Shown in pieces: positions 9,751 to 30,326 of a DNA stretch of 60,778 bases (positions are counted from its first letter, which is position 1; each line of letters begins with the position of its first letter). Position numbers and translations under genes: made by a program. The stretch is from assembly GCA_038064975.1 (NCBI GenBank), contig JBBTRX010000002.1, positions 259,278-320,055 on the forward strand, given 5' to 3'. The notes under the pieces were generated by a model, which ran no database searches, was not told where the DNA came from, and saw only the letters and a program-made list of their open reading frames with translations. This DNA comes from Patescibacteria group bacterium (GTDB lineage Bacteria > Patescibacteriota > Minisyncoccia > UBA6257 > 1-14-0-10-40-38).

Positions 9751-11093
9751 AAACTATTTTTATTAGCAGTTTCCATGGGTTAATTTCTCGAGTCCTTGCG
9801 TCTGGTCTTATCGATCAGCTTATTGAAAATAATATTCGTATCGTATTATTTGTCCCGTCTCAAAAAATAGATTATTTCAAAGAAAACTTTAAACACAACA
9901 ATATTATCATAGAGCCAGTGAATTTTATTCCATCTCGCATTGATCGTTTTCTAACAAGTATGGCATTTGTACTTACTCCATCACGGGCGATGGAAATTAA
10001 ATGGCGTTGCGATATTAAAAATTCTACTGGTTTATTGTTAAATCGATTAATCAAGCCGCTTCCATTCGTTCGGAATTTCTTAGGAATCGTTATTCGCTTT
10101 ATGAGTCAATTTAGTACATTGAGAAAACAATTCAGTTTCTATTTCAAAAAATATGAACCCGAACTTGTTTTTTCGACTGATATTCAAAATCCGTTTGATG
10201 TCACATTATTGCACGCTGGTCGGCGCTATGGATCAAAAAGCATCGGTATGATTCGTTCCTGGGATAATCCTACGTGTAAAGGGATAATGAGATTTTTTCC
10301 AGATCAGCTTCTTGTTGCAAACAATATTTTATTAAAAGAAGTTATTCATTTTAATCGTTATCCTAAAAATAAAATAAGAATAGTAGGAGTTCCTCATTAC
10401 GATATCTACGTCAAGGAGCCTCGTATTTCACGCGAGGAATTCCTCAAACAACATGGATTGAATAACCAAAAGAAGATAATTTTCTTTGCTCCAGCAGGTG
10501 ATCGTTATATTGATACTGACTGGCAGATGATCCAATTATTTGATCAGTGGATTAAAGATTCTGTTTTTGAGTACCCCGTCCAATTATTTGTGCGTCTCCC
10601 TCCGGGGGACACCGTTCAGCTTCGCGATTATGAACCTTCTGCAAATATTGTCATATACCAATCTGGCGTTGCATCTTCCGATCAAGAGATGAAGCATCGA
10701 GAAATGTCAATAACCGACGTGAGATCTCTTGCGGATCAGCTGTATCACGCAGATGTAGTGATTAGTGGTCCATCAACCATTCTTGTTGATGCCGCCGCGC
10801 TCAATAGGCCGACTATCCTATATGCAATCAATGGTTATGAATTACATAGGCCCTTGTGTCGTAGTTTGGAGCGTTATCTTGAATACGAACACTTGCAAAA
10901 CATCATAGCGACCGGAGGTATTCGGGTTTCCAAAGATTCTAAAACATTAGTCCAATACATAAATCTTTATCTCAAAAATACTACTATAGATCGATCGTAT
11001 CAAAAGCGCATCGTTGAGGAGCAATGTGCTAATATGATCGGATTTTCAATTCAGAAGACGATCCAAGCGATTATGCAACTACTTCGTATCTAG
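9747..11093 (+). CDS. GT-B fold transferase, TagF-like (CDP-glycerol glycerophosphotransferase-like) family, paralogue A
   Basis: Shares motifs with the ORFs at 15887 and 17233: SWDN(P), VGVPHYDIY, IIFFAPAGDRY and ADVVISGPSTILVDAAALNRPTI. This layout resembles TagF/Glyphos_transf (GYPRxD, YAPTxR, DYSS). The family assignment is by eye only. Confidence 0.5.
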   Translation: MKTIFISSFHGLISRVLASGLIDQLIENNIRIVLFVPSQKIDYFKENFKHNNIIIEPVNFIPSRIDRFLTSMAFVLTPSRAMEIKWRCDIKNSTGLLLNRLIKPLPFVRNFLGIVIRFMSQFSTLRKQFSFYFKKYEPELVFSTDIQNPFDVTLLHAGRRYGSKSIGMIRSWDNPTCKGIMRFFPDQLLVANNILLKEVIHFNRYPKNKIRIVGVPHYDIYVKEPRISREEFLKQHGLNNQKKIIFFAPAGDRYIDTDWQMIQLFDQWIKDSVFEYPVQLFVRLPPGDTVQLRDYEPSANIVIYQSGVASSDQEMKHREMSITDVRSLADQLYHADVVISGPSTILVDAAALNRPTILYAINGYELHRPLCRSLERYLEYEHLQNIIATGGIRVSKDSKTLVQYINLYLKNTTIDRSYQKRIVEEQCANMIGFSIQKTIQAIMQLLRI

Positions 11094-15886: not shown

Positions 15887-17236
15887 ATGAAAACTGTTTT
15901 TCTTTTTGTTTCAAACTATGTCTATTCATCAGATTTCTTGCGCACCGAGTATATTCGCTATTTAAGTGTATATTATCGAGTTATTGTTTTTGCTCCGAGC
16001 GGGCTATTTGAAGGTGGTAAGCCCTATTTCGTGAGTCCGAACGTTGTTTACGTGAAATGGAATGTACAGTCGCCTCGTTTTTGGAGTATTTTTGGCAAAT
16101 TATTCCGTTATTCTTTAATTAGAAAATATGATTTTGAACCGGTTGTAAAACGAAATCGCGAACGTGGACTAAAAAACTGGCATAGAAAAATGCTCTGGTT
16201 TTTTTCTCATCTTTTTCCTAAAAATTTTTGGAACCCAGATTTTTTCTTACGACTTGAAATCCTTCTCGCCCCCAGGTCATTTTCATTTGAGCGCTCTATA
16301 GAAAAATATAAACCAGCTATCGTTCTTACGGCGAGCCCGGGCTTCAACCACTTTGATGCTGAAGCGATTGTTCTTGCGAAACGTGCCGGAATAAAAACTG
16401 CAGCTATTAATTTCAGTTGGGATAACCTTCATAACGGTGGTATTCATTTTCGTCGCACCGATTACCTTTTGGTATGGAATGAAGTTATAAGACAAACGGC
16501 AATCAATGAGTACGGCTACTCTCCTCACCGTGTTTTAGTATCGGGTATCATTCGTTTCGACCACTATTTCAAATCACCGCCAAACAACAACAATCGAGAG
16601 GCATTTTTAAAATCAAAAGGCTTAAACCCAGATGCTAAGACTATCTTACTCACAACTACAACTGATGGAAATTATCCAGATGAAGACATTGTTTTAGATA
16701 ATCTTATCCAAGCTCGTATGGCGGGACGTTTTCCAAATTTTCCAAATATTTTCGTTCGTATGCATCCGAAGGAAAATATAACAAAATTCATGCGTTTTTC
16801 TCATGACTCATCTTTTCAGAATATTTGCATAGAGAAAGCTGGGACGGATCGAGAAGTTAATCTTGGCAGCGCCACTGAACTCAGTGAAGAAGATCTTGAT
16901 AATCTTAAATACACACTTGAGTACAGTGATGTGATTGTAAATTACGCATCCACTATTACTCTAGAAGCCTTTGCATTTGATAAGCCGGTTATCAATATTA
17001 ATTATCCGCAACAATACGAGCGAGCATATTCTTTTCGGCATTATAAGCCAATTGTTGATGCGGGTGCTGTGCGTCTCCCAAAAAGTTTCAACGATCTTGT
17101 GAGCGACATTAATTCTTATTTAAAGAATCCTGAAAAAGATAAATTTGCACGCGAGAGCATTGTTGAAAAACTTATTGGCCATCGCGATGGTTTATCCTAT
17201 AAAAGGAGCGTAGATCTGTTATTAAACATTATATGA
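15887..17236 (+). CDS. GT-B fold transferase, TagF-like family, paralogue B
   Basis: FSWDNLHNGG, VSGIIRFDHYF, FVRMHPKEN and SDVIVNYASTITLEAFAFDKPVININ. Paralogous by eye to 9747 and 17233. It is the only copy with His-Pro at the aligned VRxxP position. Confidence 0.5.
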   Translation: MKTVFLFVSNYVYSSDFLRTEYIRYLSVYYRVIVFAPSGLFEGGKPYFVSPNVVYVKWNVQSPRFWSIFGKLFRYSLIRKYDFEPVVKRNRERGLKNWHRKMLWFFSHLFPKNFWNPDFFLRLEILLAPRSFSFERSIEKYKPAIVLTASPGFNHFDAEAIVLAKRAGIKTAAINFSWDNLHNGGIHFRRTDYLLVWNEVIRQTAINEYGYSPHRVLVSGIIRFDHYFKSPPNNNNREAFLKSKGLNPDAKTILLTTTTDGNYPDEDIVLDNLIQARMAGRFPNFPNIFVRMHPKENITKFMRFSHDSSFQNICIEKAGTDREVNLGSATELSEEDLDNLKYTLEYSDVIVNYASTITLEAFAFDKPVININYPQQYERAYSFRHYKPIVDAGAVRLPKSFNDLVSDINSYLKNPEKDKFARESIVEKLIGHRDGLSYKRSVDLLLNII

Positions 17237-18612
17237 GGACAATTTTCATCACGCTTTTTCAGGGAATTGAGGTTAAAAATATTATGCGTACAAACGTTTA
17301 TCGCGAACTTATTTCGCATTCCGATACGCGCCTAATTTGTTTTTTAGACAATCAGAAACGGGTAGATATTTGCAGGCGGGAGTTTAATCACGATCGCATT
17401 ATTTATGAAACGGTAGAACACTTTCGCCCTGCTTTCCTAGACTCGTTTTTTCAGGCGGTAAGTTTTTATTTTATTAATACAGAGACGATCCGTCTCAAGC
17501 GTTTCATGGCTTGGGAAGAAACTAAGAATCCGATACATTTTCTTACCGCCTTAATTAATCTTGTGGTGGCTCACGGTTTTGTCCGGCGATGTATCCGTAT
17601 ACTTGATTACGTGCTCGTTAGAGATACTAATTTTAAGAAGTTTTTTGAACAATACAAACCCGACGTTGTACTACTCGCGCATCTTTTTGAGAGACGTGAA
17701 GTCAACTTATTGCGTGAAGCAAAACGTCAAAAGGTGCCAACTGTTGGGTTCATTAATTCATGGGATAAGGTTACTGGGAGGTGTGGCATCCGACTTCTAC
17801 CGGATCGCATGGCGGTTTTTAACTCCCTAGTCAGGCAGGAGGTGATTGAACACGTTGATATGCCAGAATCTCAAGTTGTTGTGATCGGTCTTCCTCAATA
17901 TGATATTTATACCAAACGTGAACCTCATAATAGAAAGAAAGTATGGGATGAGTTTAATATTGATATTCAAAAAAGGATTATTGTTTATGCCCCAATGGGA
18001 AGAACGTATAGTAATTCTGATTGGGACATTATCGATTTTCTTCAGGGTGCCATAGAAAATAACAGCATTCAAAATGCGGCTCTCTTAGTCAGATTTCAGC
18101 CCAATGATTTTTTTGATGAAACGGAGCTTAAGAAGCGACCATGGTTAAAGTATGACCATCCTGGCATCCGTTTTTCCACGGAACGAGGCGTAGATTGGGA
18201 TATGAGTTTTAAGGATATTGACAATCTTCGTCATATACTCGAAAGTCTTTCCGTTCTTGTTTGCTACGCTTCCAGTATGAGTATAGACGCGGCTGTTTTC
18301 AATAAACCGGTAATTAATATTGATTTTGAAACACGAAAAGAAAAATTGTTACGAAAATCTCCAACGGCTTTTTACCGTTTCAGTCATTATCGAAAAATGC
18401 TTGAAGCAGATGGTGTAGCGCTTGTTAAAACATCGCAGGAATTGATAGATAGAATTAACGAATATCTAAACAATCCATTACTGCACAGCGATAAAAGAGC
18501 TCTTCTTGTGAAAGAACAGTGTGGGATTTTTGATGGTCGATCTGGAGAACGATTGGCAAAACTTGTTACCGATACAGCTAAAAATACATATTCTAGTACT
18601 AATGTAGCTTGA
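17233..18612 (+). CDS. GT-B fold transferase, TagF-like family, paralogue C
   Basis: INSWDKVTGRCG, VIGLPQYDIY, IIVYAPMGRTY and VLVCYASSMSIDAAVFNKPVINID. Start overlaps the stop of paralogue B (ATGA). Confidence 0.5.
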   Translation: MRTIFITLFQGIEVKNIMRTNVYRELISHSDTRLICFLDNQKRVDICRREFNHDRIIYETVEHFRPAFLDSFFQAVSFYFINTETIRLKRFMAWEETKNPIHFLTALINLVVAHGFVRRCIRILDYVLVRDTNFKKFFEQYKPDVVLLAHLFERREVNLLREAKRQKVPTVGFINSWDKVTGRCGIRLLPDRMAVFNSLVRQEVIEHVDMPESQVVVIGLPQYDIYTKREPHNRKKVWDEFNIDIQKRIIVYAPMGRTYSNSDWDIIDFLQGAIENNSIQNAALLVRFQPNDFFDETELKKRPWLKYDHPGIRFSTERGVDWDMSFKDIDNLRHILESLSVLVCYASSMSIDAAVFNKPVINIDFETRKEKLLRKSPTAFYRFSHYRKMLEADGVALVKTSQELIDRINEYLNNPLLHSDKRALLVKEQCGIFDGRSGERLAKLVTDTAKNTYSSTNVA

Positions 18613-18674
18613 CTCATGAAACTTTTATTCGATGATAAAGGTTATTCATGGCCAGGTGCTGGATATTAATATAT

Positions 18675-19934
18675 ATGCAACAAAAGAAGAAAGTTTTAGT
18701 CCCTATTCTTAACAGAGCTCACTACGGAAGACTTCGTTCAGTGTTGAAATCCATACAATCTCACGAGAGCCTTGAATTGCAAATTGTCGTGGGAATATCT
18801 AACGCTTACGGTAGCTTTTGGGAGATGATACGGTACAGTAAGCCGTATTCTTGGCGCATAGCTTTGGCGTGGTATGTGCGTGCAAAACTAATTTTTCTAA
18901 AAAGCATTTTTTGGCCAAATGCTCTTGGTCATGATTTTTTAGTTCGTAATATTACCAAAGACGGTTTTACCGTTAACGCAACAGTCCCTTTATTTTTAGA
19001 CGGAGGATCTTCAGAGACTATGGCTAATGTTGTAGGGCTTGGAATTCCTAAAATCGTTCGTATTTTTACAAAACTTAAACCCGATGTCGTTTTTATTAAT
19101 GCTGATAGATTTGAGATGATGGCAATCACTATTGCCGCCGCGTATCTCAACATTCCGATAGCTCATAATGAAGGAGGGGACGTAACGGGAACGATTGATG
19201 AAAGTATTCGTCATGCTATTACAAAATTTGCTCATTATCATTTTACTTCAACATTTAAAAGTAGGGATCGTGTTATTCGTATGGGAGAAAATCCAGAATA
19301 TGTTTTTGCGGTTGGGTCGCCAGCTATAGACGTTATCCAAAATATTAGCAGGACACCGAATCAAGATATTATTCCAGGACATGATTTTGAGAAGCCTTAT
19401 CTTGTCGTCTTATTGCATTCTGTAGCAACCGAGAATCATGAACAAAATAAAATTCTTGTGCAAAGCGTTGTTGATGCTGTGGATGAGATACGTATGCCTA
19501 CTATTTTTCTGGGATCCAATATGGATGCTGGATCAAATGTCATTGGTGAAATTACTCGGAATTGGCAAGCAACTAAAGATACATCCTATGTTGTTTTTAA
19601 AAAACATCTTCCTCCTGATGATTTTTACCAAATATTATCGAGCGCCGCGTGCGCCGTGGGCAATTCATCAAGTTTTATTCGTGAAGCCGCTTTTTTTGGA
19701 ACACCAGTCGTCTTAATTGGTTCTCGGCAATCTAGGCGTGAACGAGGAAAAAACGTTGTTGATGTCATTATTCCCGAGAAAAGACAGATTGTAGAGACTA
19801 TACAGGGCCAGATCCAACGGGGACGCTATGAACCTGATTATATTTTTGGTGAGGGTCGTGCTGGTGAAAAAATTGCAACACTTCTTGCAAATCTCAAGGT
19901 TCCACCAATACAGAAAAATTTTTATGAATCGTAA
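18675..19934 (+). CDS. neuC: UDP-N-acetylglucosamine 2-epimerase (hydrolysing), NeuC-type
   Basis: KVLVPILNRAHYGRL, ADRFEMMAITIAAAYLNIPIAHNEGGDVTGTIDESIRHAITKFAHYHF and GNSSSFIREAAFFGTPVVLIG match the NeuC/SiaA family. There is an apparent extra segment of about 35 aa after the first strand-helix. An alternative start is ATG 18648. Confidence 0.8.
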   Translation: MQQKKKVLVPILNRAHYGRLRSVLKSIQSHESLELQIVVGISNAYGSFWEMIRYSKPYSWRIALAWYVRAKLIFLKSIFWPNALGHDFLVRNITKDGFTVNATVPLFLDGGSSETMANVVGLGIPKIVRIFTKLKPDVVFINADRFEMMAITIAAAYLNIPIAHNEGGDVTGTIDESIRHAITKFAHYHFTSTFKSRDRVIRMGENPEYVFAVGSPAIDVIQNISRTPNQDIIPGHDFEKPYLVVLLHSVATENHEQNKILVQSVVDAVDEIRMPTIFLGSNMDAGSNVIGEITRNWQATKDTSYVVFKKHLPPDDFYQILSSAACAVGNSSSFIREAAFFGTPVVLIGSRQSRRERGKNVVDVIIPEKRQIVETIQGQIQRGRYEPDYIFGEGRAGEKIATLLANLKVPPIQKNFYES

Positions 19935-20658
19935 TGTGCGTATTCTGGGAGTAATTACTGCCCGTGGAGGATCAAAAGGTATTCCTGGAAAGAACATAAA
20001 GCCCCTCTTGGGAAAACCTCTACTTGCATATACTATTGAAGCCGCAAAAAAGTCGGGTGTGTTTGATCGCCTCGTTCTTTCCACGGACGATCAGATAATT
20101 GCAAATGTAGCTAAGGAATACGGATGTGAAGTTCCGTTTCTGCGTCCTAAAACAGAGGAACTTGCTGGTGACAAGGCCTCACATTTAGAAGTAATGAAAC
20201 ACGCGGTCCAGTGGCTGAAATCCAATGAAGAATATGAGCCGGATTACGTGATGATTCTTCAGCCGACTTCGCCGCTCCGCCAACCGGAACAGATTAAGGA
20301 ATCGGTCGATCTGATTCAAAAAACCGGAGTTGATTCGGTTTTAAGCGTTTCGGAAATATCAGAAAATTTTCACTATAGAAAAGCTATGGTATTAAATGGC
20401 GAAGGAATTCTGAAGTTGATTACTCCAACCGGAGAACCTATCTATAAAAGAATTGCCCGACGGCAGGATTTGGAAAAAATTTATTGGAGCGTCGGGTCCA
20501 TCTATCTTTTTAAAACATCTCTTCTTGAGAAGGGGAATTTTTATGGAGAAAAGACCGCGCCAATTTTTATCGATCCTAAATTCGTTTGCGATATTAATGT
20601 TCCAGCTGACTGGGAGGTTGCGGAAAAGATGATGCGCGATTTGCAGTCCAGAAAATAA
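19924..20658 (+). CDS. neuA: acylneuraminate cytidylyltransferase (CMP-sialic acid synthetase)
   Basis: RILGVITARGGSKGIPGKNIKPLLGKPLLAYTIEAA is the CMP-NeuAc/CMP-Kdo synthetase P-loop-like signature. ATG 19924 overlaps the neuC stop by 11 nt; the upstream ORF-track extension is not credible. Confidence 0.85.
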   Translation: MNRNVRILGVITARGGSKGIPGKNIKPLLGKPLLAYTIEAAKKSGVFDRLVLSTDDQIIANVAKEYGCEVPFLRPKTEELAGDKASHLEVMKHAVQWLKSNEEYEPDYVMILQPTSPLRQPEQIKESVDLIQKTGVDSVLSVSEISENFHYRKAMVLNGEGILKLITPTGEPIYKRIARRQDLEKIYWSVGSIYLFKTSLLEKGNFYGEKTAPIFIDPKFVCDINVPADWEVAEKMMRDLQSRK

Positions 20659-20686
20659 TAGTTCGACAAGCTCGCTATAAAAAAAT

Positions 20687-21658
20687 ATGAAATTCGTAAC
20701 TTTAATTACCGAGCCAAAGGATTACTCACCAAAAGCGTTAGATCTTTATCAATCTATCGGCGAGGTTTATGAATTATCTGAAGCCGAGGCAGTGAAAAAA
20801 GAAGGGCCAAAATTCAATGCCGATATTTTAGTATTACGTCTCAAATACCTGATCGATAAATCCTGGCTGGATAAACTACCGAATCTTAAGGTGATTGCCA
20901 CTCCGACTACTGGCTTAAATCATGTGGATATGGCCGAAGCCGAGAAGCGGGGCATCAAGATAATTTCTCTTCGGGGCCACGCCTCATTTTTAGATAAGAT
21001 TACTTCTACGGCCGAAGAAACGGTAGGTTTGATGATTGCCCTAGTCCGGAAACTTCCTTGGGCTTTTGAATATGTTAAACAGGGCGGTTGGGTAGATCGC
21101 GATCGTTTTCGGGGACGACAACTCGTCGGAAAAACTATCGGCATATTAGGCTTGGGCCGCTTGGGTAAGATGGTGGCGCGATATGCGCAGGCGATGGGAA
21201 TGAAAGTTATTGCCGCCGATCCAAATATCAGTGAATCGGCCATGAAAGAGCTCGGAGTGGAAAAAGTAGAGACGGATCAACTCTTTAAAGTTTCGGATAT
21301 TGTGTCTGTCCATGTTTTATTGACTGACGAAACGAAAAATATTTTCAAAGAAGCCCACCTTAAAATGATGAAGCCGACCGCGTATTTAATTAACACGGCC
21401 CGCGCCGAGATTATCGAAAAGGGTGCTCTCGAAAAAGCGCTTGAAGAAAGGTGGATCGCGGGAGCAGCAATTGATGTGATGTGGGGGGAAGAAGGTGGTC
21501 TTGGATTCGAGCAGGTTTTAAAAAACGAACCTCTTTGGCAGTACGCGCAGAGCCACGACAATTTACTGATTGTTCCGCATATCGGAGGCGCGGCTTACGA
21601 AGCAATGTGGGCGACTGAAGAATTCATTGCTGATCTGGTGCGGAAAGCGATGAAATAA
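20687..21658 (+). CDS. D-isomer-specific 2-hydroxyacid dehydrogenase (NAD-binding; PGDH/glycerate dehydrogenase-like)
   Basis: GKTIGILGLGRLGKMVARYA dinucleotide fold, NTARAEIIE and IVPHIGGA catalytic Arg/Glu/His pattern. Confidence 0.8.
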   Translation: MKFVTLITEPKDYSPKALDLYQSIGEVYELSEAEAVKKEGPKFNADILVLRLKYLIDKSWLDKLPNLKVIATPTTGLNHVDMAEAEKRGIKIISLRGHASFLDKITSTAEETVGLMIALVRKLPWAFEYVKQGGWVDRDRFRGRQLVGKTIGILGLGRLGKMVARYAQAMGMKVIAADPNISESAMKELGVEKVETDQLFKVSDIVSVHVLLTDETKNIFKEAHLKMMKPTAYLINTARAEIIEKGALEKALEERWIAGAAIDVMWGEEGGLGFEQVLKNEPLWQYAQSHDNLLIVPHIGGAAYEAMWATEEFIADLVRKAMK

Positions 21659-21660
21659 AT

Positions 21661-21861
21661 ATGGGAGCCTATATTCCAAAAAACGAAATTGAGAGGGCGC
21701 TTTCGAATATTCCGGTGAAAGGAAAAAAGTTGCTTGAGCCGATAAAATCATTTTTAGTGAAAGCCGTAATCGACACGCCCGGGAAGGTTTCAATTTACAC
21801 TCCGGTATACAGTGGGGTTTTTTGTTTTAAATTAGATTTATGTTGCTCTGGTTTGTTTTAG
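21661..21861 (+). CDS. hypothetical small protein (66 aa), doubtful
   Basis: ATG lies 3 nt after the dehydrogenase stop and the ORF fills the otherwise 181-nt gap. Its end overlaps the DMT transporter start by 22 nt. No recognisable motif. Confidence 0.25.
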   Translation: MGAYIPKNEIERALSNIPVKGKKLLEPIKSFLVKAVIDTPGKVSIYTPVYSGVFCFKLDLCCSGLF

Positions 21862-22742
21862 CGCTTGGTTCGGCGGTTTCCAATTCCGCCGTACAGGCAA
21901 TCCAAAAGTGGGCGGTGGCGAGTAGTCGTTACTCTAAGTTCACAATCGGATTAGCAGTACATCTTTTGGCCGGATTTATATTATTAATTGCGACCTATTT
22001 TTTTCTTGGCGTGCCAGTCTTGCAGGAAGGTTTTTGGTTCGCGGCCGTCGTAACATCGATCTTGAATGTACTTGCCTTTCCGATCATGTTACGGGCCTAT
22101 GAGCTGGGAGAATTTTCCGCCGTATATTCAATGATTTTGCTGACGCCCGCTTTTCTGCTCGTGACCTCGTTTTTATTTCTGGGAGAGATTCCGTCATTGA
22201 TGGGTTTGGTGGGAGTTCTACTGACTATTCTCGGCCTTTGGGTAGTGAGCCGAAGTAATTATATTCATTCTGCCGTTCCCGATTTTGCTAAGGGAAATTG
22301 GCTTGGGATTATAGTTGCCCTAATCTACTCGATCACGGTCAATTTCGATAAATTAGCTGCTTCTCGCTCCAGCGCTTTTTTCGCTCCCGCCGTTGAGTTG
22401 CTTATAATGTCGGTCGGTTTCGCAGTCTATTTGCTACTACGACACAAAAAATTAGTAGTTTGTCTGCCTCACGCCGAGGCCACGGTTAACGGCCAAACGG
22501 TGAGAGCGGTACCAAAGGCCTTCATTTTACTATTGCTCGGAGTGGTGATGGCCGGCGCTCTTATTTTGCACAACGCCGCATTGTTAACAGGTCTCGCCTC
22601 GTATACTATAGCTATCAAGCGAGTGGGCGTTTTGCTCGGCGTTATTTGGGGTTGGCTGTTTTTTAAAGAGAAATATTTAGGAAAGAAACTGCTTGGTTCT
22701 GCTATTGCTATTGTCGGTGTAGTTATTATATTGTGGTCATGA
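21840..22742 (+). CDS. EamA/DMT-superfamily transporter
   Basis: A 300-aa protein with about 10 TM in two similar halves (EamA-like), ending ...GSAIAIVGVVIILWS. Confidence 0.7.
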   Translation: MLLWFVLALGSAVSNSAVQAIQKWAVASSRYSKFTIGLAVHLLAGFILLIATYFFLGVPVLQEGFWFAAVVTSILNVLAFPIMLRAYELGEFSAVYSMILLTPAFLLVTSFLFLGEIPSLMGLVGVLLTILGLWVVSRSNYIHSAVPDFAKGNWLGIIVALIYSITVNFDKLAASRSSAFFAPAVELLIMSVGFAVYLLLRHKKLVVCLPHAEATVNGQTVRAVPKAFILLLLGVVMAGALILHNAALLTGLASYTIAIKRVGVLLGVIWGWLFFKEKYLGKKLLGSAIAIVGVVIILWS

Positions 22743-22751
22743 ATTAGCGCC

Positions 22752-23867
22752 ATGAATTCCAATCAAATTTGGGACAAAATTCAAAAAGGAGTATTTATAA
22801 TCGCAGAGATTGGTAAGAACTTTATCCAAACCGAGGAGCCCCAATCAGTAGAGGTTTATTTGGAGAACGCAAAAAAGTTAGTTGATCGGGCGGTGGAGGC
22901 TGGAGTGGACGCGGTAAAATTCCAAACCCACAATGTTGAGGACGAGCAATTGAATATCAACGTGACCTCGTCGCATTTTAAAGGAAGCGATCGTTATAGC
23001 TGGGTGATGCGCAACACCCTCGCTACTCCAGTGGACAAATTTTGGAAACCGCTAAAAGAATATTGCGAAAAAAGGGGGATTATTTTTTTCTCCACTCCGA
23101 TGAGTCGGGGTGCGGCGAAAATTCTCAATGAGCAGGTTGGCGTCGAGTTTTGGAAAATTGGCTCGGGAGATATTTTGGATTTTGTGATGCTAGACTATCT
23201 CCGCGAGACCGGAAAGCCGATTATTATTTCTTCTGGCATGAGTACGCTTGAAGAGGTGGAAAAAGCAGTCAATTTTCTTTTAGAAAAAAATCCTCAAGTT
23301 GCTTTATTGCATTGTGTTTCTAAATACCCTTGCCCACCAGAAGAATTGCATCTGCGAACGATTGATTTTTATCAAAAGCGATTTAACTTGCCGATCGGAT
23401 TCTCTGATCATTCGGTGGGCATCGAGTCTTCGATTGTAGCTGTTGCTATGGGCGCAAAAGTTCTAGAAAAACATTTTTCGATGTCCCGTGATCTCTGGGG
23501 CTCGGATCACAAAGTTTCAATGACCCCTCAAGAATTAAAAGATTTAGTTGTCGGAACCAAAGAAGTTGTCGTGAATGCTGCTAAGCGCAACGAAGTTTTA
23601 AACAGCGATTTTGCCAAACGCAGTCTGGTGGGCGAGGGTAAGGTTTTGCAGGAAGGCGAGGCGGTGTTCCGTCCGTTATTTAGAAAATCACTTATGGCCG
23701 GAAGAGATATCCCCGTAGGTACGATTCTGACATCGGAAATGATATATGCTATGCGCCCCCAACAATATGCAGACGGTTTGCCATCGGAGCAATATGAGGC
23801 CGTACTGGGAAAACGGACGCGTGTTGAACTTAAAAAATACGATCCTATTAAGATGGGGACTTTTTAA
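22752..23867 (+). CDS. neuB: N-acetylneuraminate (nonulosonate) synthase, NeuB family with C-terminal SAF domain
   Basis: FIIAEIGKNF, VDAVKFQTH, GFSDHSVG and LEKHFS (metal-binding His residues), plus a C-terminal SAF/antifreeze-like domain (GRDIPVGTILTSEMIYAMRP). The usual N-H of IAEIGxNH is replaced by N-F. Confidence 0.8.
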   Translation: MNSNQIWDKIQKGVFIIAEIGKNFIQTEEPQSVEVYLENAKKLVDRAVEAGVDAVKFQTHNVEDEQLNINVTSSHFKGSDRYSWVMRNTLATPVDKFWKPLKEYCEKRGIIFFSTPMSRGAAKILNEQVGVEFWKIGSGDILDFVMLDYLRETGKPIIISSGMSTLEEVEKAVNFLLEKNPQVALLHCVSKYPCPPEELHLRTIDFYQKRFNLPIGFSDHSVGIESSIVAVAMGAKVLEKHFSMSRDLWGSDHKVSMTPQELKDLVVGTKEVVVNAAKRNEVLNSDFAKRSLVGEGKVLQEGEAVFRPLFRKSLMAGRDIPVGTILTSEMIYAMRPQQYADGLPSEQYEAVLGKRTRVELKKYDPIKMGTF

Positions 23868-23923
23868 TAGAGAGGTTTCTTTTTTAAAACAAATCAGATA
23901 GTATGACGGTTATATAAGATATC

Positions 23924-24859
23924 ATGGAAAATCCTAAAATTGGCATCATCGGACTTGGTTGGATAGGAATGCAGTTCAAGCGATATTTTGAAGAGGTACA
24001 AAAACATACTCGCGGAGCTGATCTTTTTTTGTACGATACTGATATAAAAAAGGATTTTTTTGATGACATTGGAAAGGCAGATGTTGTATTTTTATGTTTG
24101 CCCACACCCCGGAATTCAAAGGACGGTTCATGTGATACGTCTATTGTTGAAGATGGTATTCGTCGTTTGGAAGGCTCTGGAGAAAAAGTTGTCGTAATCA
24201 AGTCAACGGTATCTCCTGGGACGACGGAGGGATTTCAAAATAAATATCCCCAACATAAATTTCTTTTTAGCCCCGAATTTTTAACGGAAAGTCGTGCATG
24301 GGAAGATATGCTGAGACCTGATCGTCAGATAGTCGGATTTACTAAGAAAAGTCTTGATGCTGCTCATTTTATTTTATCGCTTTTACCAAAAGCTCCCTTT
24401 ATGTCTCCGTGGGGAATAAATACGTATAAACAGACCCGTATCACAGCAACTGAAGCGGAATTTATCAAGTATGCGGCAAATGTATATTTTGTAAGAAAGG
24501 TGAATTGGGCAAATGCGCTTGCGGCGGCTGCAGAGAAGTTGGGGGTGAGCTATGAACATATTCGTCAGGGCATGTCGGCAGATCATCGAATTGGCGATTC
24601 TCATTTGGATGTGACACACGGTGGGTATCGTGGTTGGGGAGGATATTGTTTCCCAAAAGATCTTGACGCGTTTATTAGTTTTGCAAGATCAAATAAGCTC
24701 GATATGACTACTGCTTTGCTTTCGGCAGATAAATCTTTTAATGAAGAACTTCTAAGGAGTCAAGAATTAACGCTTGAACAGGTCAGTGCTCATATTAATA
24801 TTCTTGAAGACCGTTTAAAGGGATTACGTGAACAGCGTGAAAAATTTGGATTGAAATAG
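23924..24859 (+). CDS. UDP-glucose/GDP-mannose dehydrogenase-family protein, short form without the C-terminal UDP-binding domain
   Basis: KIGIIGLGWIG Rossmann motif, CLPTP, SPEFLTESRAWEDMLRPDRQIVG and the catalytic-Cys motif GGYCFPKD. The protein ends about 55 aa after that motif in a predicted coiled tail, at 311 aa. Confidence 0.65.
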   Translation: MENPKIGIIGLGWIGMQFKRYFEEVQKHTRGADLFLYDTDIKKDFFDDIGKADVVFLCLPTPRNSKDGSCDTSIVEDGIRRLEGSGEKVVVIKSTVSPGTTEGFQNKYPQHKFLFSPEFLTESRAWEDMLRPDRQIVGFTKKSLDAAHFILSLLPKAPFMSPWGINTYKQTRITATEAEFIKYAANVYFVRKVNWANALAAAAEKLGVSYEHIRQGMSADHRIGDSHLDVTHGGYRGWGGYCFPKDLDAFISFARSNKLDMTTALLSADKSFNEELLRSQELTLEQVSAHINILEDRLKGLREQREKFGLK

Positions 24860-24988: not shown

Positions 24989-27229
24989 ATGAACAACAAT
25001 ATTCTTCTTTCAATATATCTGAACAGCATTAAGGCATTACTATTTTCTGTCGCTTTCTTGCCCTTACTGATTTCACAATCAATGCTGTTCCCCTATATTA
25101 CGGGAAGAAATTTTGGATTCCGTATTTTAGTTGAAATTGCTTTAGTGCTCTGGGTTGGGCTTGTAGTTTTGAATCGTGATTATCTTCCAAAAAAATCAAT
25201 CCTGCTTTGGGCTATAGTATTGTTTTTAGCCATCATCGGTATCGCAAACCTTCTTGGCGTTGATAGTTACGATAGCTTTTGGTCCCGTTATGAACGGATG
25301 GAGGGATACATAGGACTTCTTCATTTTGGAGTTTATTTTATAATCGCTTCTTCGGTATTACGATCCAAGAAAGATTGGAAGATATTTTTTACCTTCATTC
25401 TTTTCGCCGGATTTTTGGTTGGAATTTTTGCTTTACAGCAAAAAATAAGCGGAACAGGCTCAATTCAAGGAGGGAGTCGCGTTGATGGGACGATCGGAAA
25501 TCCAACGTACCTTGCTGCGTATTCATTGTTCTTACTTGGTCTTAGTCTTGTGATGTGGCACAATGCACGCCAAAAATGGCTACGCTATATTTTTACCGGA
25601 GGAGCTTTGTTTTTTCTTCTTATTATCTATCTTACGGCAAGCCGTGGCCCTCTTTTAGCGTTAGGGGGAGTCGCATTTCTTTTCCCTATTTTATTTCTTT
25701 TATTTGGCGAAAGTGAACAGCGGAGAAAGTATAAAAAATACGCATTCGGGCTCCTTGCAGGACTCATTCTTCTCATAGGTGGCTTCTGGTTTATCAAAGA
25801 TTCTATGTTTGTTGAGTCAAGTCCGATTCTTTCCAGATTCGCGAGTATTTCTCTTACAGATAAAACAACACGATCGCGCCTTATGATTTGGAATATGGCG
25901 TGGCAAGGATTTAAAGAACGGCCAGTTTTTGGTTGGGGTCAGGAGAATTATATTCATGTTTTCGCAAAATATTACAATCCGAAATTATTTGATCAGGAAC
26001 CATGGTTTGATCGCGCCCATAGTGTCGTTTTTGATTGGATGATTAATGGCGGATTTTTAGGTATTGTTTCATATTTTTCTTTATTTGGTGTCGCATTTAT
26101 GCTGTTATGGAAATTAAAAAAGAAGGGCACACTCTCTTTTTTTGAGGCAGTTATTTTTGCACTTACCCTACTTGCTTATTTTACTCAAAATCTTCTTGTC
26201 TTTGATAATTTTACGACGTACTTTTTATTCTTTTCTGTGTTGGCATATCTCCATGCGCTTTCTCATGATTCGGATACGAAGATAGATATTCATCGAAGCG
26301 TCATGGCAGTGCCATCACTTCTTGCTTCTGGCACAATGTTAGTTGTCATACTATTGCCATTTTATTTTATTAATGTCCGACCCATTCTTGCTTCCCAGAA
26401 ATTAATTGGCGTACTACAATCTCTCACGTCGTCGGAAACAACTCCAGCGAGTGTCCGTAAATCTCTTGAAGATGCTCTCGCGTATAATTCATTTGGTAAC
26501 ACAGAGATTAATGATCAAATGGCGCGTTTGGCAGTTCAACTTTCTCGTGTAGAAAAAATTTCAATCCAAGAAAAGGTTGAGTTTGCAAAATTCACGATCA
26601 TGAGCTTAGAGTCAAGGATTGAACGGCATCCCAACGATCTACGAACCCATCTTATGTTGGGAGATCTCTATAATCAGTTCGCGACCATTGATCCGAGCTA
26701 TCCCAAAAAAGGAGAGGATCATATTCGTAAAGCGATTACATTAAGTCCAAATCGACAGACCACATATTTTCTCCTAGCGGATAATCTCATTTTACAGAAT
26801 AATTCTAATGAGGCTATTAATGTATTGCGTGAAGCAGTTGATTTAGAGCCAACATTTATCGTTGCTCAAGCGAACCTCGCTTTTATTGCGGAAAATTTTA
26901 ACAGATCGGATGTAGCAAACGAAGTACTCGCAGACCTTTATGAAATTATTGGATCAGATTACCGTTCTTATGATGCTGCGGTCGCGCTCAAGCGTATGGG
27001 GGATTTCTATATTAGCCAACAAAGATTCTCCAATGCTCTACAATGGTATAAATTAGTAATTCAGACCGATCCTGGACAAGCTGAGACTAGAGCCAATATT
27101 GCTGCACTTTATCTTAAAAATGGCGATAAAGAGGAGGCGATTTTTCAAGCGAAAAAAGCAGCTGAACTTGACCCACAAAATTACGCGGCGCAAACAAAGG
27201 AATTTCTTAAGAATATTGGCGCTAATTAA
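24989..27229 (+). CDS. O-antigen ligase/polymerase-like (Wzy_C) membrane protein fused to a C-terminal TPR-repeat domain
   Basis: Polytopic N-terminal roughly 450 aa with YLTASRGPLLALGG (Wzy_C core) and a large loop (RSRLMIWNMAWQGFKERPVFGWGQENY). The C-terminal roughly 280 aa carries TPR-like repeats (...AITLSPNRQTTYFLLADNLILQNNSNEAINVLREAVDLEP...). Confidence 0.75.
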   Translation: MNNNILLSIYLNSIKALLFSVAFLPLLISQSMLFPYITGRNFGFRILVEIALVLWVGLVVLNRDYLPKKSILLWAIVLFLAIIGIANLLGVDSYDSFWSRYERMEGYIGLLHFGVYFIIASSVLRSKKDWKIFFTFILFAGFLVGIFALQQKISGTGSIQGGSRVDGTIGNPTYLAAYSLFLLGLSLVMWHNARQKWLRYIFTGGALFFLLIIYLTASRGPLLALGGVAFLFPILFLLFGESEQRRKYKKYAFGLLAGLILLIGGFWFIKDSMFVESSPILSRFASISLTDKTTRSRLMIWNMAWQGFKERPVFGWGQENYIHVFAKYYNPKLFDQEPWFDRAHSVVFDWMINGGFLGIVSYFSLFGVAFMLLWKLKKKGTLSFFEAVIFALTLLAYFTQNLLVFDNFTTYFLFFSVLAYLHALSHDSDTKIDIHRSVMAVPSLLASGTMLVVILLPFYFINVRPILASQKLIGVLQSLTSSETTPASVRKSLEDALAYNSFGNTEINDQMARLAVQLSRVEKISIQEKVEFAKFTIMSLESRIERHPNDLRTHLMLGDLYNQFATIDPSYPKKGEDHIRKAITLSPNRQTTYFLLADNLILQNNSNEAINVLREAVDLEPTFIVAQANLAFIAENFNRSDVANEVLADLYEIIGSDYRSYDAAVALKRMGDFYISQQRFSNALQWYKLVIQTDPGQAETRANIAALYLKNGDKEEAIFQAKKAAELDPQNYAAQTKEFLKNIGAN

Positions 27230-28995
27230 GTTTGGATTCTAGAATTTTTTCTAAAGACCAAAAACTTTATTCCTAAGAAATTCCAGACAAGAGAAATTGG
27301 TGTGGCGATAATCTTTGCAATATTAAGCCATGTCTGAGGATTGGTTGTGGGAGGCTCGACAAAGGTTGTGAAGAGAAAAACAATTCCGCTATTGAGCATG
27401 GTTCCTCCTACGTATATTCCGAAGTAAATAAATATCTCTTTGAGCGAAGTTTTGCTTGTATATCTAAATGTCCATTTTTTATTAAAAAAATAACTATTTG
27501 TTACGGCGATAAAAAATGATGCAGTATTAAGAATAATAATTTTTGGACCAGAGTAAATTTGAAAAACAGAACTTAAGATATTTAAAAAACCAAAGTCAAT
27601 AATAAAGCTCGTCGTACCAACGATTAAAAATTTAGTCAGTTGTTTCGTATAATGATTACTGCGGAGAAGAATTAGGATGCGCTCTACTAAACTGCGCATG
27701 CCTTCAAATATTCCATATAATGAAAGATTATTTATTTTTTTAATTGACCGCCAAATAAGTATGTTAGTGATGAGTTGAGTGAGTGCAGTAGCAATCGCTG
27801 ATCCTGCAATGCCAAAGCGAGGAATAAGCAAAAAATTAAAAATAATATTGCCGATAAGAGCGACAACGACAAAAAGAATAAATTTTCTCTGTTGGTTATA
27901 TGCAAAAATTGCATTACCTAATAGCGTTGAAGGATATACGATTAAAATAGTGAGCATGAGTATTTCAAATGATACGATAGCCGGGGTATACGTTGGCCCG
28001 AAGAGAATTACGATAATATGTCGTGCAAAAACTAAGCCGAGGATTGTGACCGGAACTGCGAGAAGAGTAACTCCCCCAATCATTTGTTCCAGTATTTTTC
28101 TTGCTTTTTCTTGATTATTTCGTGCAAAGAAAGCTAGAGTTGGAAAAACGCTGGTGCTGAGAAGAGCGGGGATGACGTAGAGTAATTGCATAACCTTCTG
28201 AGCAACGGAGTAGTAGCCGACATCTTCAGCGTTACGAAGCCAACCAATCATAATGATGTCCGTATTGAGCATGATGATGCCCATAATACCCAAGAGTCCA
28301 AATGGCCATGCGTTTTTGATAATAGGAAGAATAAGGCTTATCTGAAGAGATGAGAGCATTCCCGTTAAATGTTTCCGTAAAGCGAAAAATACAATAGCAA
28401 ACCCAATGCCGGATCCGATGGCATAGCCGATTCCTAGAGAGCGGCCTGTAGGAAGGATAGCGATCATAATAAGACTTGCTACTACAATTGCTGCGTTGGT
28501 AACTATCTGGCTCATCGCTTCCAGTTCCATACGTTGCAGTGAACGGGCTATCGCGGTGCCAAGATCTCGAAACGTATCAAATGCAAATACGATGAGAAGA
28601 ACTGCAAGTATTGAGCCCGATGACGGGATCGTTGCTATTTTAGGGAGAAGAAAAAGTGTAATAAGTGTGATACTAATCACAAGCCCTGCTTTAATCCAAA
28701 ACGCAGTAGAAAGATACCGAGCTCGCATTGCTGGTGATTGGACAGACTCTCTCGTAATAAGCGCGTTCATACCCACATCAGAAAAAATAGTGAGAAACGT
28801 TGCGATTCCAAGGGCGTAAGAAAAAGCCCCCCATCCTTCTACGCCTAAAACGCGTGCGGCGTAAATAACGATGATTGCTCGTAACATTCTACTAATAAGT
28901 TGCCCGCTAAAAAGCCAAATCGTATTTTTTATGATTTTTTGCGAGAATGGCAAATTTTCATTTGTATCCAAAAGAAACGCAGTGATGTGTGACAT
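27226..28995 (-). CDS. MOP-superfamily flippase (Wzx-like) fused to a C-terminal GtrA-like domain
   Basis: N-terminal roughly 430 aa is a 12-14 TM polysaccharide-biosynthesis-protein type region. C-terminal LTKFLIVGTTSFIIDFGFLNIL...NSYFFNKKWTFRY is a GtrA-family signature. Its stop overlaps the stop of the convergent gene. Confidence 0.75.
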   Translation of the reverse strand: MSHITAFLLDTNENLPFSQKIIKNTIWLFSGQLISRMLRAIIVIYAARVLGVEGWGAFSYALGIATFLTIFSDVGMNALITRESVQSPAMRARYLSTAFWIKAGLVISITLITLFLLPKIATIPSSGSILAVLLIVFAFDTFRDLGTAIARSLQRMELEAMSQIVTNAAIVVASLIMIAILPTGRSLGIGYAIGSGIGFAIVFFALRKHLTGMLSSLQISLILPIIKNAWPFGLLGIMGIIMLNTDIIMIGWLRNAEDVGYYSVAQKVMQLLYVIPALLSTSVFPTLAFFARNNQEKARKILEQMIGGVTLLAVPVTILGLVFARHIIVILFGPTYTPAIVSFEILMLTILIVYPSTLLGNAIFAYNQQRKFILFVVVALIGNIIFNFLLIPRFGIAGSAIATALTQLITNILIWRSIKKINNLSLYGIFEGMRSLVERILILLRSNHYTKQLTKFLIVGTTSFIIDFGFLNILSSVFQIYSGPKIIILNTASFFIAVTNSYFFNKKWTFRYTSKTSLKEIFIYFGIYVGGTMLNSGIVFLFTTFVEPPTTNPQTWLNIAKIIATPISLVWNFLGIKFLVFRKNSRIQT

Positions 28996-28997
28996 GG

Positions 28998-30326
28998 TTA
29001 CGCCGAAACGAAGATGTGGCGGATTGTTTTCATGAGGATGCTGATATCAAGCAATATCGCCCGATGTTTTAAGTAGTATAAGTCATATTCCAACTTTTGA
29101 TATGAGTCTTCAAACGAAGATCCATAAGGATAGTTGATCTGTGCCCATCCGGTAAGTCCGGGACGAATCATGTGTCGGAAATCATAATAGGGAATTTTTT
29201 CTTCCAGCGTTGCAGTAAATTCGGGCCGCTCGGGTCGTGGGCCGACGAAGGAAAGATCTCCCCAGAGAATATTCCAAAGCTGGGGAAGTTCATCAAGGTG
29301 CGTTTTGCGTAGTATTTTTCCTATCGGGGTTACGCGTACGTCATCCGGCTTTGCCCATTTGGGGCCGAATTGTTCCGCATTCAGCATCATGGTTCTAAAC
29401 TTCCAAAGCGTAAATTTTCTGCCCCGTACTCCCACACGCGTTTGTGTAAAAAATGCCGATCCATGAGCGGTCATTTTGATGGCAAAAACGATAACGAGAG
29501 CTATCGGAAGTAGAAGCGCTGAAAGTAAGCAAGCGAGCATAATATCCAAAGGACGTTTCAAAATCTCATAGATATTTTTATCCTCGGAAATTCCTTCTCC
29601 AAACCAATTTGATCCCAATTCTTCTAGAGGAATTTTATTGAATATTTCTTCATAGATTGTTTTTAAATCAATGAAGTGTGCATGATCAAGTTTCTGTCCC
29701 AACGCTTCATATGCTGTTTTATCTTCTTTAATGTGACGGGGCACGACTACAAGATGAGCGTTTTGTTCTTGGAGGGCATTCAAAAGCCTTTCTTTATTGC
29801 TATATATTTCTTGACTTGTGATAGTTTCGGCTATTTCATAACCAAGTTGAGAGTGTTCCTGAAGATAATGTGCCAATTCTTGGGCAAGTTTTGTGTTTCC
29901 AAGAATAATAATTCTTTTAAGCGGTCCTCTAAATTGGATATTAGTATTATATGTTGATCTCCATACGTATGCGGCACTTCCGAAAATAGCGAGGAAAATG
30001 AGCAGGTTTGCGCGAGGAGTAATTTCATACAGAGGGAGAAAATAGAAAAAGAGAGCTGCTAGAAAGAAATTGAGCGTAAGTGCTAAGCCAAATCGAGCAT
30101 TGAATTTTTTACTGTTACGAAGTGCTGATGGATCATAAAGTCCCACAATATAGAAAATAATGATCCAAAACGCAAAAATAATTGAAAAGGGAAGGAAGTG
30201 ACTTCTCGGAAGCTGGGCGGCAAGGTTTCCATAACGGATAAAAAGCATGAGAACAAGAGAAATATAGAGGACAATGATGTCCCCCGCGAGAACTGAAAAT
30301 TGTTGTAGTTTGACATACCTCCTCAT
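28998..30326 (-). CDS. polyprenyl-phosphate glycosyl-1-phosphate transferase (WbaP/bacterial sugar transferase family)
   Basis: C-terminal KRPLDIMLACLLSALLLPIALVIV, FFTQTRVGVRGRKFTLWKFRTM and DELPQLWNILWGDLSFVGPRPERPEF match the Bac_transf signature. N-terminal 4 TM plus a central Rossmann-like domain, as in WbaP. Confidence 0.9.
   Translation of the reverse strand: MRRYVKLQQFSVLAGDIIVLYISLVLMLFIRYGNLAAQLPRSHFLPFSIIFAFWIIIFYIVGLYDPSALRNSKKFNARFGLALTLNFFLAALFFYFLPLYEITPRANLLIFLAIFGSAAYVWRSTYNTNIQFRGPLKRIIILGNTKLAQELAHYLQEHSQLGYEIAETITSQEIYSNKERLLNALQEQNAHLVVVPRHIKEDKTAYEALGQKLDHAHFIDLKTIYEEIFNKIPLEELGSNWFGEGISEDKNIYEILKRPLDIMLACLLSALLLPIALVIVFAIKMTAHGSAFFTQTRVGVRGRKFTLWKFRTMMLNAEQFGPKWAKPDDVRVTPIGKILRKTHLDELPQLWNILWGDLSFVGPRPERPEFTATLEEKIPYYDFRHMIRPGLTGWAQINYPYGSSFEDSYQKLEYDLYYLKHRAILLDISILMKTIRHIFVSA

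Follow-up and report, generated by a model that had tools for sequence, protein, structure and literature searches.

The window, as we call the whole stretch of DNA analysed here, is a 60.8-kb (60,778-nucleotide) part of a contig of at least 381.7 kb from a Patescibacteria group bacterium, and our subject is a cassette of sialic-acid-type genes that lies in its glycan locus. Between 17.2 and 27.2 kb an unbroken run of genes on the + strand codes, in this order, for a TagB-like protein, NeuC, a CMP-nonulosonate synthetase (CMPtr), a D-2-hydroxyacid-dehydrogenase-family oxidoreductase (2HADH), an EamA permease, NeuB, a short UGDH-like dehydrogenase and a Wzy_C-TPR membrane protein. We consider it probable that the portion from 18.6 to 23.9 kb is a conserved module of four enzymes and one transporter, making a CMP-activated nonulosonic acid (NulO) for an envelope glycan of Patescibacteria (Parcubacteria-like). 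Genes were called as open reading frames (ORFs), domains were assigned with Pfam on all of the large ORFs and equivalogs with NCBIfam at its curated cut-offs. Related loci were retrieved by exact protein look-up (8 genome loci, 80 metagenome loci and several contigs), and their ORFs were labelled by best hit against the window proteins, a procedure that replaced a single-linkage clustering in which NeuB, CMPtr and 2HADH had been merged via fusion proteins. All six of the genes described by the original prediction, which had been made from the sequence alone (NeuC, CMPtr, 2HADH, EamA, NeuB with its SAF domain and the short UGDH-like gene), are present and their domain calls are confirmed by Pfam and NCBIfam; the placing of a NulO biosynthesis and activation set inside a glycan locus of the Candidate Phyla Radiation (CPR) type is likewise supported.

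The NeuC-type hydrolysing UDP-GlcNAc 2-epimerase (Epimerase_2) is encoded by an ORF that opens at 18648 and ends at 19934, with the internal Met10 at 18675 as the likelier start. The CMPtr gene (19924..20658; CTP_transf_3, PF02348, 94 bits) overlaps the end of NeuC by 11 nt and is followed by 2HADH (20687..21658; PF02826, 184.7 bits, and PF00389, 45.5 bits), a 66-aa cupin remnant (21661..21861) and the EamA gene for a permease of the 10-transmembrane type in the drug/metabolite transporter (DMT) superfamily (21840..22742; PF00892, two repeats, 62.3 bits). NeuB, a TIM-barrel synthase with a SAF domain (22752..23867; PF03102, 250 bits; SAF, 25 bits), starts 9 nt past EamA, and the run goes on with the 311-aa UGDH-like dehydrogenase (23924..24859; PF03721 and PF00984 only) and an O-antigen ligase/polymerase-like Wzy_C membrane protein with a C-terminal TPR region (24989..27229; PF04932 and TPR families). 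The shared strand and the short gaps suggest that the cassette is co-transcribed; a scan for promoters and terminators from 17 to 27.5 kb gave the same counts as shuffled sequence and hence no operon evidence either way, and the Rfam and tRNA scans had no match in the cassette region.

The arrangement is far from being a peculiarity of this contig. The order NeuC – CMPtr – 2HADH – (cupin) – EamA – NeuB – (GT-B-like gene) – short UGDH – Wzy_C-TPR – NTP transferase – flippase – Bac_transf – DsbA recurs in seven related loci (L001-3, L007, L009, L011 and L016), and more than 10 independent loci, with protein identities of 47-80%, share the arrangement, which is far beyond chance. For a quantitative view we counted the genes within 6 kb of NeuB, restricted to loci that have 4 kb or more of sequence on either side. 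Among the 15 close loci, whose NeuB is at least 60% identical to that of the window, 11 have NeuC, 12 CMPtr, 11 2HADH, 10 EamA-like genes, 9 the short UGDH, 10 Wzy_C-TPR and a single one a DegT-type aminotransferase; for the 10 distant loci (NeuB identity 45-60%) the corresponding counts are 8, 9, 6, 4, 0, 1 and 2. Cultured carriers of the cassette or of its fusions were sought in plasmid and phage collections and none was found there, all of the matches being below 36% identity.

The 2HADH matches no equivalog (199.6 bits against a cut-off of 454 for phosphoglycerate dehydrogenase, PGDH, and 191.1 against 455 for glyoxylate reductase), and its best structure match is the PGDH of P. horikoshii. 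Its catalytic triad (R239, E268 and H298) and Asp263 are invariant in 138 family members. The family is large, the source names given are all of Patescibacteria/Parcubacteria-type metagenome-assembled genomes (MAGs), and in public annotation its members go by no more than ‘NAD(P)-dependent oxidoreductase’, ‘hydroxyacid dehydrogenase’ or ‘hypothetical protein’. Moreover, 2HADH is repeatedly fused to other enzymes of the cassette. With the fused ORF of L056 as query, at least 11 diverged clusters of CMPtr~2HADH fusions were found (541-588 aa, 39-63% identity), and a Falkowbacteria MAG is the source of one of these; a triple fusion NeuC~CMPtr~2HADH of 969 aa also exists (P0462). L097 has a NeuB~NeuC fusion with a CMPtr~2HADH fusion behind it, which puts all four activities into two proteins, and in L096 a triple fusion lies downstream of a NeuB with the canonical motif, inside a Wza/Wzc-type polysaccharide locus. 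Since 2HADH is linked to NeuB as tightly as NeuC is, is repeatedly fused and keeps an invariant triad, its predicted membership in the pathway is well supported. The three partners that the original prediction had set outside the textbook pathway are not alike: the short UGDH-like gene is not pathway-specific, while 2HADH would be a core enzyme and EamA a recurrent accessory. The membership of 2HADH also makes it unlikely that plain Neu5Ac (N-acetylneuraminic acid) is the whole story. A literature search found no description of a 2HADH in any NulO cluster. As a separate observation, L058 has two complete CMPtr-2HADH-NeuB-NeuC sets next to each other, one with a synthase like that of Neisseria meningitidis and the other with a synthase of the type described below, so that the partnership of 2HADH is not limited to the latter.

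With respect to CMPtr, the best equivalog model is PseF, which it approaches without reaching the cut-off (191.7 against 205.7), and the best solved relatives are NeuA enzymes (134, 119 and 104 bits). By its domain assignment it is a member of the CTP_transf_3 family.

The synthase is also set apart from its characterised relatives. NeuB falls below the cut-offs of both the NeuB_NnaB model (TIGR03569, 273.7 against 399.65) and the PseI model (TIGR03586, 219.2 against 340.25), the former being a model on which canonical paralogues in related loci score 416-471. It is about as far from N. meningitidis NeuB as it is from B. subtilis SpsE and from PseI (142, 140 and 138 bits), whereas the canonical synthase of a related locus clearly separates the same three references (231, 191 and 172 bits). 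The motif IAEIGKNF, which the original prediction had pointed out in place of the usual IAEIGxNH, is indeed there and marks a clade: of the homologues that have at least 45% identity and a detectable motif, 64/64 carry NF, and distant paralogues, where it is detectable, have NH or SH. Neighbour joining unites the NF sequences in a single clade (66/100 support), with N. meningitidis NeuB and SpsE placed elsewhere, though this crude tree, based on Kimura distances and only two solved references, shows separateness and not exact placement. A clustering with SpsE-like synthases, named beforehand as an outcome that would speak against a sialate synthase, is not seen in this tree, and the sister group of the NF clade also has NeuC-CMPtr(-2HADH) neighbours. 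By these comparisons the window NeuB is placed outside the characterised group of Neu5Ac synthases, in a separate NF clade. The catalytic residues of the N. meningitidis enzyme are E25, E134 and E234, together with R314 of the SAF domain (PMC8208679); in an alignment to structure 1xuu they correspond to E19, D140, E239 and R335 of the window NeuB, and the last three of these are invariant within the NF clade. Public metagenomes list more than 120 clusters of NF synthases at 58-81% identity, the source names given being without exception Patescibacteria-type (Parcubacteria, Paceibacterota, Harrisonbacteria, Nomurabacteria) or unclassified bacterial MAGs. Such names of homologous MAG proteins, together with CPR-typical neighbouring genes, are what the analysis itself bases the CPR label of the locus on.

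NeuC is the most conventional enzyme of the set. It scores well above the NeuC_NnaA equivalog cut-off (TIGR03568, 325.8 against 235.9) and only 65.4 bits on the non-hydrolysing wecB model, whose cut-off is 210. Its assignment to the hydrolysing type is therefore upheld, and the grouping with WecB that had been set beforehand as evidence to the contrary is not observed. The closest solved relative is the epimerase domain of human GNE (195 bits), followed by LegG (162 bits); we had considered this ranking as a discriminator between neuraminic and legionaminic types and dropped it, as both of the NeuC lineages found in these loci rank GNE above LegG. The gene context, with few DegT genes near the cassette and none near L096 and L097, favours UDP-GlcNAc over UDP/GDP-N,N'-diacetylbacillosamine as the NeuC substrate. 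The extra NeuC segment, estimated in the original prediction at about 35 aa, is real and measures about 38 aa (residues 62-98, encoded at about 18831-18941, containing SKPYSWRIALAWYVRAKLIFLKSIFWP). It has a conserved SW..AL.WY core and, among 47 NeuC homologues, is common only to the window, L003 and L026 (that is, to 2/46 other homologues); the window NeuC belongs to a rare sub-lineage marked by this insertion. Trp, Leu and basic residues abound in the segment (SWRIALAWYVRAKLIFLKSIFWP), which has the look of an amphipathic helix, possibly a membrane-associating one. Four of the loci (L001, L009, L011 and L016) carry a different NeuC lineage, 37% identical, in an otherwise identical gene order.

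This difference in NeuC lineage has a parallel in base composition. CMPtr, 2HADH, EamA and NeuB have a GC content of 0.42-0.46 and a third-position value (GC3) of 0.39-0.48, the genes from 0.5 to 19.9 kb have a GC content of 0.33-0.39 (with the exception of a radical-SAM gene at 0.48), and NeuC itself has a GC of 0.39 and a GC3 of 0.29, within the 0.25-0.34 of the AT-rich genes upstream. The step to a more GC-rich sub-block at 19.9-24 kb, which had been noticed by eye, is thus real; what does not follow is that this block is the odd or foreign part, for it has the composition of the housekeeping genes that make up the window's right half (GC 0.43-0.48, GC3 0.35-0.46). The step marks the border between a housekeeping-like block and a variable part that includes NeuC and the TagB-like genes. 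This AT-rich part has probably been exchanged, and the composition of NeuC agrees with such an exchange.

The EamA gene lies directly or nearly directly upstream of NeuB in most of the close loci, often in two copies in the neighbourhood, and EamA-like genes are found inside more distant cassettes as well (L017, L055 and L063). It therefore appears to be a recurrent accessory of the cassette; a sequence search with it against the PDB had no match even at E=10. The 66-aa ORF between 2HADH and EamA, which occupies the only sizeable gap of the run, is the N-terminal remnant of a 146-aa cupin gene: tblastn with the cupin of L012 gives 41% identity over 34 aa, and an intact cupin stands in the same position in L001, L009, L016 and L008. 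A further accessory gene of the module thus seems to have been lost in the window.

The short UGDH-like dehydrogenase shares with UGDH/Ugd the NAD domain, the central dimerisation domain and the catalytic Cys motif (GGxCFPKD, here GGYCFPKD); presumably the Thr, Glu, Lys, Asn and Asp positions of the S. pyogenes enzyme, which we compared by eye, are kept too. It differs in having no C-terminal UDP-binding domain (PF03720) at all; its alignment to UGDH ends at about residue 318/444 and its score on TIGR03026 is below the cut-off (138.4 against 189.8). The original prediction had seen in this a truncated UDP-sugar dehydrogenase, a description that has to be given up: a full-library search at E<1e-30 yields 244 representative clusters, nearly all of 250-350 aa, and the missing domain is a trait of a naturally short two-domain family rather than a sign of decay. 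The gene adjoins Wzy_C-TPR in every examined locus that holds both genes, among them L095, which has no NulO genes in the 8 kb downstream, and relatives are also present in a glycosyltransferase-rich locus and on a contig bearing a phage terminase. Wzy_C-TPR is itself a conserved downstream partner in L001-3, L009, L011 and L012. On these grounds we assign the short UGDH-like enzyme to the neighbouring Wzy_C-TPR envelope module and not to the sugar pathway. We did consider that it might oxidise C9 of the sugar to make a substrate for 2HADH; this was dropped, as the family occurs without NulO genes in the sequence retrieved (L095, L098 and L099) and 2HADH occurs without the short UGDH-like gene. 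The member in L099 (4988-5824) is the one that adjoins the terminase gene, with DegT, SDR (short-chain dehydrogenase/reductase) and methyltransferase genes nearby.

Immediately 5' of NeuC lies the third of three paralogous + strand genes for TagB/TagF-like GT-B proteins (9747..11093, 15887..17236 and 17233..18612; PF04464 at 29.0, 30.6 and 44.6 bits). Such genes recur next to the cassette in 30 loci, and in L003 a 42% identical orthologue of the second paralogue is even inserted between NeuC and CMPtr. The third paralogue is not a member of the BFO_1060-family glycosyltransferases (NF046086, 52.6 bits against a cut-off of 200), with which it has no more than a general Glyphos_transf similarity, though it may function in a comparable way. 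Because the Pse/Leg transferases of T. forsythia are TagB-like (PMC5420450), we infer that these three proteins are the best candidates for CMP-NulO-dependent transferases. Downstream of the run, and on the opposite strand, are a Wzx/MurJ-type flippase fused to a GtrA-like domain (27226..28995; PF01943, PF13440 and PF04138) and an initiating phosphoglycosyl transferase, Bac_transf (28998..30326; PF02397, 215 bits). The flippase is conserved in the related loci and Bac_transf in four of them (L003, L009, L011 and L014).

From these gene identities, family placements, fusions, catalytic residues and neighbourhoods a pathway can be proposed. NeuC would hydrolyse and epimerise UDP-GlcNAc to ManNAc (N-acetylmannosamine), which the NF-clade synthase would condense with phosphoenolpyruvate (PEP) to a Neu5Ac-type 5-acetamido nonulosonate, and the CTP_transf_3 enzyme would turn this into the CMP-sugar. 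To this pathway the 2HADH would contribute an NAD(P)-linked reaction, in all likelihood a tailoring of the nonulosonate around its activation, a position suggested by the repeated fusion to the CMP-transferase. EamA may import a precursor or move the (CMP-)sugar, and the product is probably used by the three upstream TagB-like transferases. As judged from its conserved neighbours, Bac_transf might start the glycan on a lipid carrier, with the Wzx-like protein flipping it and Wzy_C-TPR acting as its ligase or polymerase.

The backbone is most likely derived from ManNAc and of the Neu5Ac type. No DegT-type aminotransferase, SDR 4,6-dehydratase or PglD-type acetyltransferase was found in the 60.8-kb window by Pfam on the large ORFs and by tblastn, and within the same limits neither PseB, PseC, PseH and PseG nor the legionaminic dehydratase, aminotransferase and N-acetyltransferase (LegB/PglF, LegC/PglE and LegH/PglD) are present; the earlier statement that pseudaminic (Pse) and legionaminic (Leg) dehydratases and aminotransferases are lacking thus holds across the window. 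The best available argument for an aldose made as ManNAc directly from UDP-GlcNAc comes from three other loci (L030, L056 and L059), where DegT and SDR genes do lie near an NF cassette but are accompanied by a second NeuB/NeuC pair of their own, scoring above the NeuB_NnaB or PseI cut-offs. An NF cassette that coexists in this way with canonical Leg/Pse sets appears to be a separate pathway with no need for their upstream enzymes. The preference of the original prediction for a neuraminic-type sugar is accordingly retained. Its ‘canonical route to CMP-Neu5Ac’ is not, given a NeuB and a CMPtr that both fall short of their equivalogs and a synthase that constitutes its own clade.

That more modest reading, a plain canonical CMP-Neu5Ac pathway of NeuC, NeuB and NeuA with the dehydrogenase, the transporter and the short UGDH-like gene as unrelated neighbours, has several points in its favour: NeuC passes the NeuC/NnaA cut-off, the nearest solved relatives of CMPtr are NeuA enzymes, Leg/Pse genes are missing from the window and the short UGDH-like gene is indeed not pathway-specific. 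We still hold it to be unlikely, since 2HADH equals NeuC in its conservation beside NeuB and in many lineages is fused to CMPtr or NeuC, and since NeuB stands outside the NeuB_NnaB equivalog. To our knowledge, moreover, the characterised Neu5Ac clusters of E. coli K1, N. meningitidis and group B Streptococcus have no 2HADH. A product of the legionaminic type, with NeuC acting as LegG and NeuB as LegI on a 2,4-diacetamido-2,4,6-trideoxy-hexose and the dehydratase, aminotransferase and acetyltransferase genes lying outside the window, could draw on the fact that the models TIGR03568 and TIGR03569 include Leg enzymes besides those of the Neu type, that LegG is the second-best solved relative of NeuC, that the window is only part of its contig and that L011 has DegT and two SDR genes just upstream of NeuC. 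Yet the ‘hexapeptide’ gene of L011 matches the LbH families found at the C-terminus of nucleotidyl transferases rather than being clearly a PglD, DegT is as rare around the cassette as the above counts indicate (1/15 and 2/10), and where it is present a second pair above the Leg/Neu or Pse cut-offs is usually there too. L096 has no such genes nearby and L097 neither DegT nor an acetyltransferase, its only related gene being one of the SDR epimerase family; both NeuC types, finally, score higher with GNE than with LegG. We consider the legionaminic alternative highly improbable. It is also quite improbable, in our judgement, that 2HADH and EamA merely supply the pathway, with EamA importing a host-derived 2-oxo or 2-hydroxy acid or sugar and 2HADH either feeding PEP or making a D-lactyl, D-glyceroyl or glycolyl group for later attachment. 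CPR bacteria are scavengers, the nearest models of 2HADH are PGDH and glyoxylate/hydroxypyruvate reductase, and L012/L023 have a PGM-like His_Phos_1 phosphatase and an APH-type kinase beside the same NeuB and EamA, all of which would suit such a role. So would the NulOs with glyceroyl and possibly glycolyl substituents that exist in T. forsythia, whose genetic basis has yet to be established (PMC5378307) and for whose glyceroyl group the papers on that organism mention no dehydrogenase. The fusions to CMPtr and NeuC are, however, more readily understood if the enzyme acts on the sugar; the module has no conserved enzyme for acyl activation or transfer, and neither a glycerate kinase nor an enolase is part of the cassette. 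The supply of a hydroxy-acid substituent or precursor remains the main alternative role for 2HADH.

As to what 2HADH would do in the Neu5Ac-type pathway that we prefer, enzymes of this kind need an alpha-hydroxy or alpha-keto carboxylate, and 2-ulosonic acids, 2-ketogluconate for example, are reduced by some of them; of the compounds intrinsic to the pathway, the open-chain nonulosonate thus appears to be the only one of this type. One can imagine an undescribed redox step on the nonulosonate, at the C1-C2 alpha-keto acid or at a side-chain hydroxy-acid, with EamA as a DMT carrier for the sugar or CMP-sugar by analogy with the eukaryotic CMP-sialate transporters of the same superfamily; we offer this as a tentative idea that is rather less likely than the contrary. 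If it is true, a new sugar derived from sialic acid would be on display in CPR bacteria and in certain others that are uncultured.

Several points weigh against the pathway as we have drawn it. All of its support is sequence-based. With NeuB and CMPtr under all equivalog cut-offs the sugar can only be predicted, and the Leg/Pse upstream enzymes could lie elsewhere on a contig of which 60.8 kb were analysed; L011, with its DegT and SDR genes, is a case in point. The change of E134 to D in the NF clade is one that has been reported for archaeal and eukaryal synthases (PMC8208679). Some cassettes are without 2HADH (L008, L028 and L032), and a pyranose CMP-NulO offers it no alpha-hydroxy or alpha-keto carboxylate, which leaves a tailoring role without a clean chemical precedent. 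Finally, the L012/L023 variant (1079-5204 of L012) retains EamA and the same NF synthase (62-71% identical) and lacks both NeuC and 2HADH, in place of which it has a GFO_IDH_MocA oxidoreductase, the aforementioned phosphatase and kinase, and a cupin. This cassette may be a salvage or sugar-phosphate route, and it implies that the NF clade may accept other aldoses, possibly phosphorylated ones.

The remainder of the window is divided rather sharply. Its left half is otherwise a glycan locus, with two GT2 glycosyltransferases (one fused to GtrA), a GT9-family gene, a PMT_2 GT-C, several methyltransferases, a B12-radical-SAM enzyme, two flippases, the two other TagB-like genes, Bac_transf and DsbA. 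Two of these genes, the PMT_2 GT-C at 6113-7801 and the GT2~GtrA fusion at 11903-12973 (- strand), resemble as a pair an extra-membrane glycosylation system that uses a polyprenyl-phosphate-sugar donor. The B12-binding radical-SAM gene (2919-4406, - strand) is the one that stands out by its GC of 0.48 in the AT-rich glycan block; a 972-aa protein of L097 (1-85) combines B12-binding and Radical_SAM domains with a faint Glyphos_transf signal, which hints at a link of radical-SAM chemistry to TagB-like transferases. The right half is a housekeeping region (GAPDH, Rpe, a split transketolase, DUF5671, an aldolase, L25, an aminoacyl-tRNA synthetase and Ddl) and breaks off 375 nt into a bacterial 16S rRNA gene (60404-60778). 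It includes, at 47291-48028 on the - strand, a release-factor-like ORF of 245 aa that starts in the middle of the PCRF domain, with upstream stops in all three frames, and so lacks about 100 N-terminal residues of RF1/RF2; perhaps it is a PrfH-like short form.

Much of bacterial diversity belongs to the CPR/Patescibacteria, which live in attachment to other cells and of whose surface chemistry very little has been described. The genes described here are in themselves already known, with public annotations such as ‘N-acetylneuraminate synthase family protein’; our literature search found no description of nonulosonate synthesis in Patescibacteria or of the present cassette. What appears to be new is a NulO pathway with a fourth enzyme supported by fusions and with a distinct synthase clade: a sialic-acid-like module that is conserved in many Patescibacteria-type MAGs, is sited in their core envelope-glycan locus and can be recognised by such simple signatures as the AEIGKNF motif and the CMPtr~2HADH fusion. 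Its sugar would be a candidate for roles in host attachment, as a phage receptor or in immune mimicry, and for use as a chemical marker of these organisms, and the four-gene module is a concrete, testable target. The analysis also draws attention to a large uncharacterised family of two-domain UGDH-like dehydrogenases.

Considering the known systems, the closest parallel is the Neu5Ac pathway of E. coli K1, N. meningitidis (SiaA/SiaC/SiaB) and group B Streptococcus. The window has the same three enzyme families in an operon-like run, with a hydrolysing NeuC and with a SAF synthase that has equivalents of the catalytic Glu/Glu pair and of Arg314, and like that pathway it has no dehydratase or aminotransferase steps. 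It differs in a synthase and a CMPtr that fail their equivalogs (the synthase being of the NF clade, with AEIGKNF, an insert of about 9 aa and the E134D change), in the addition of the often-fused 2HADH and of EamA, and in having TagB-like transferases and not sialyltransferases of families GT38, GT42, GT52 or GT80. The eukaryotic route offers partial likenesses only: human GNE has in its epimerase domain the best solved relative of NeuC, but its ManNAc kinase domain is absent from the window locus, and NANS and the other eukaryotic/archaeal-type synthases share E134D with the NF synthase, but the locus has no Neu5Ac-9-P phosphatase. Kinase and phosphatase functions of this sort are seen in the L012/L023 variant only. 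B. subtilis spsB codes for a Glyphos_transf-like putative NulO transferase that adjoins the pathway genes. The Leg/Pse pathways as a whole (LegB/C/H/G/I/F and PseB/C/H/G/I/F of C. jejuni, Sps of B. subtilis, and those of T. forsythia) have the synthase, NeuC-like (Leg) and CMPtr families in common with the window, from which their defining dehydratase, aminotransferase and N-acetyltransferase are absent; elsewhere the canonical sets coexist with the cassette as separate gene sets. In T. forsythia, as in the window, TagB-like/Glyphos_transf-like putative NulO transferases are next to the pathway genes (PMC5420450). With the 2HADH superfamily (2-ketoaldonate and glyoxylate-hydroxypyruvate reductases, PGDH), finally, the window 2HADH shares the fold, the NAD(P) site and the Arg-Glu-His triad; it has inserts of its own, including one of 5 aa in the SLRGHASFLDK loop and a longer loop before the catalytic His, and it is embedded in, and elsewhere fused to, a set of NulO enzymes, an association for which we found no precedent.

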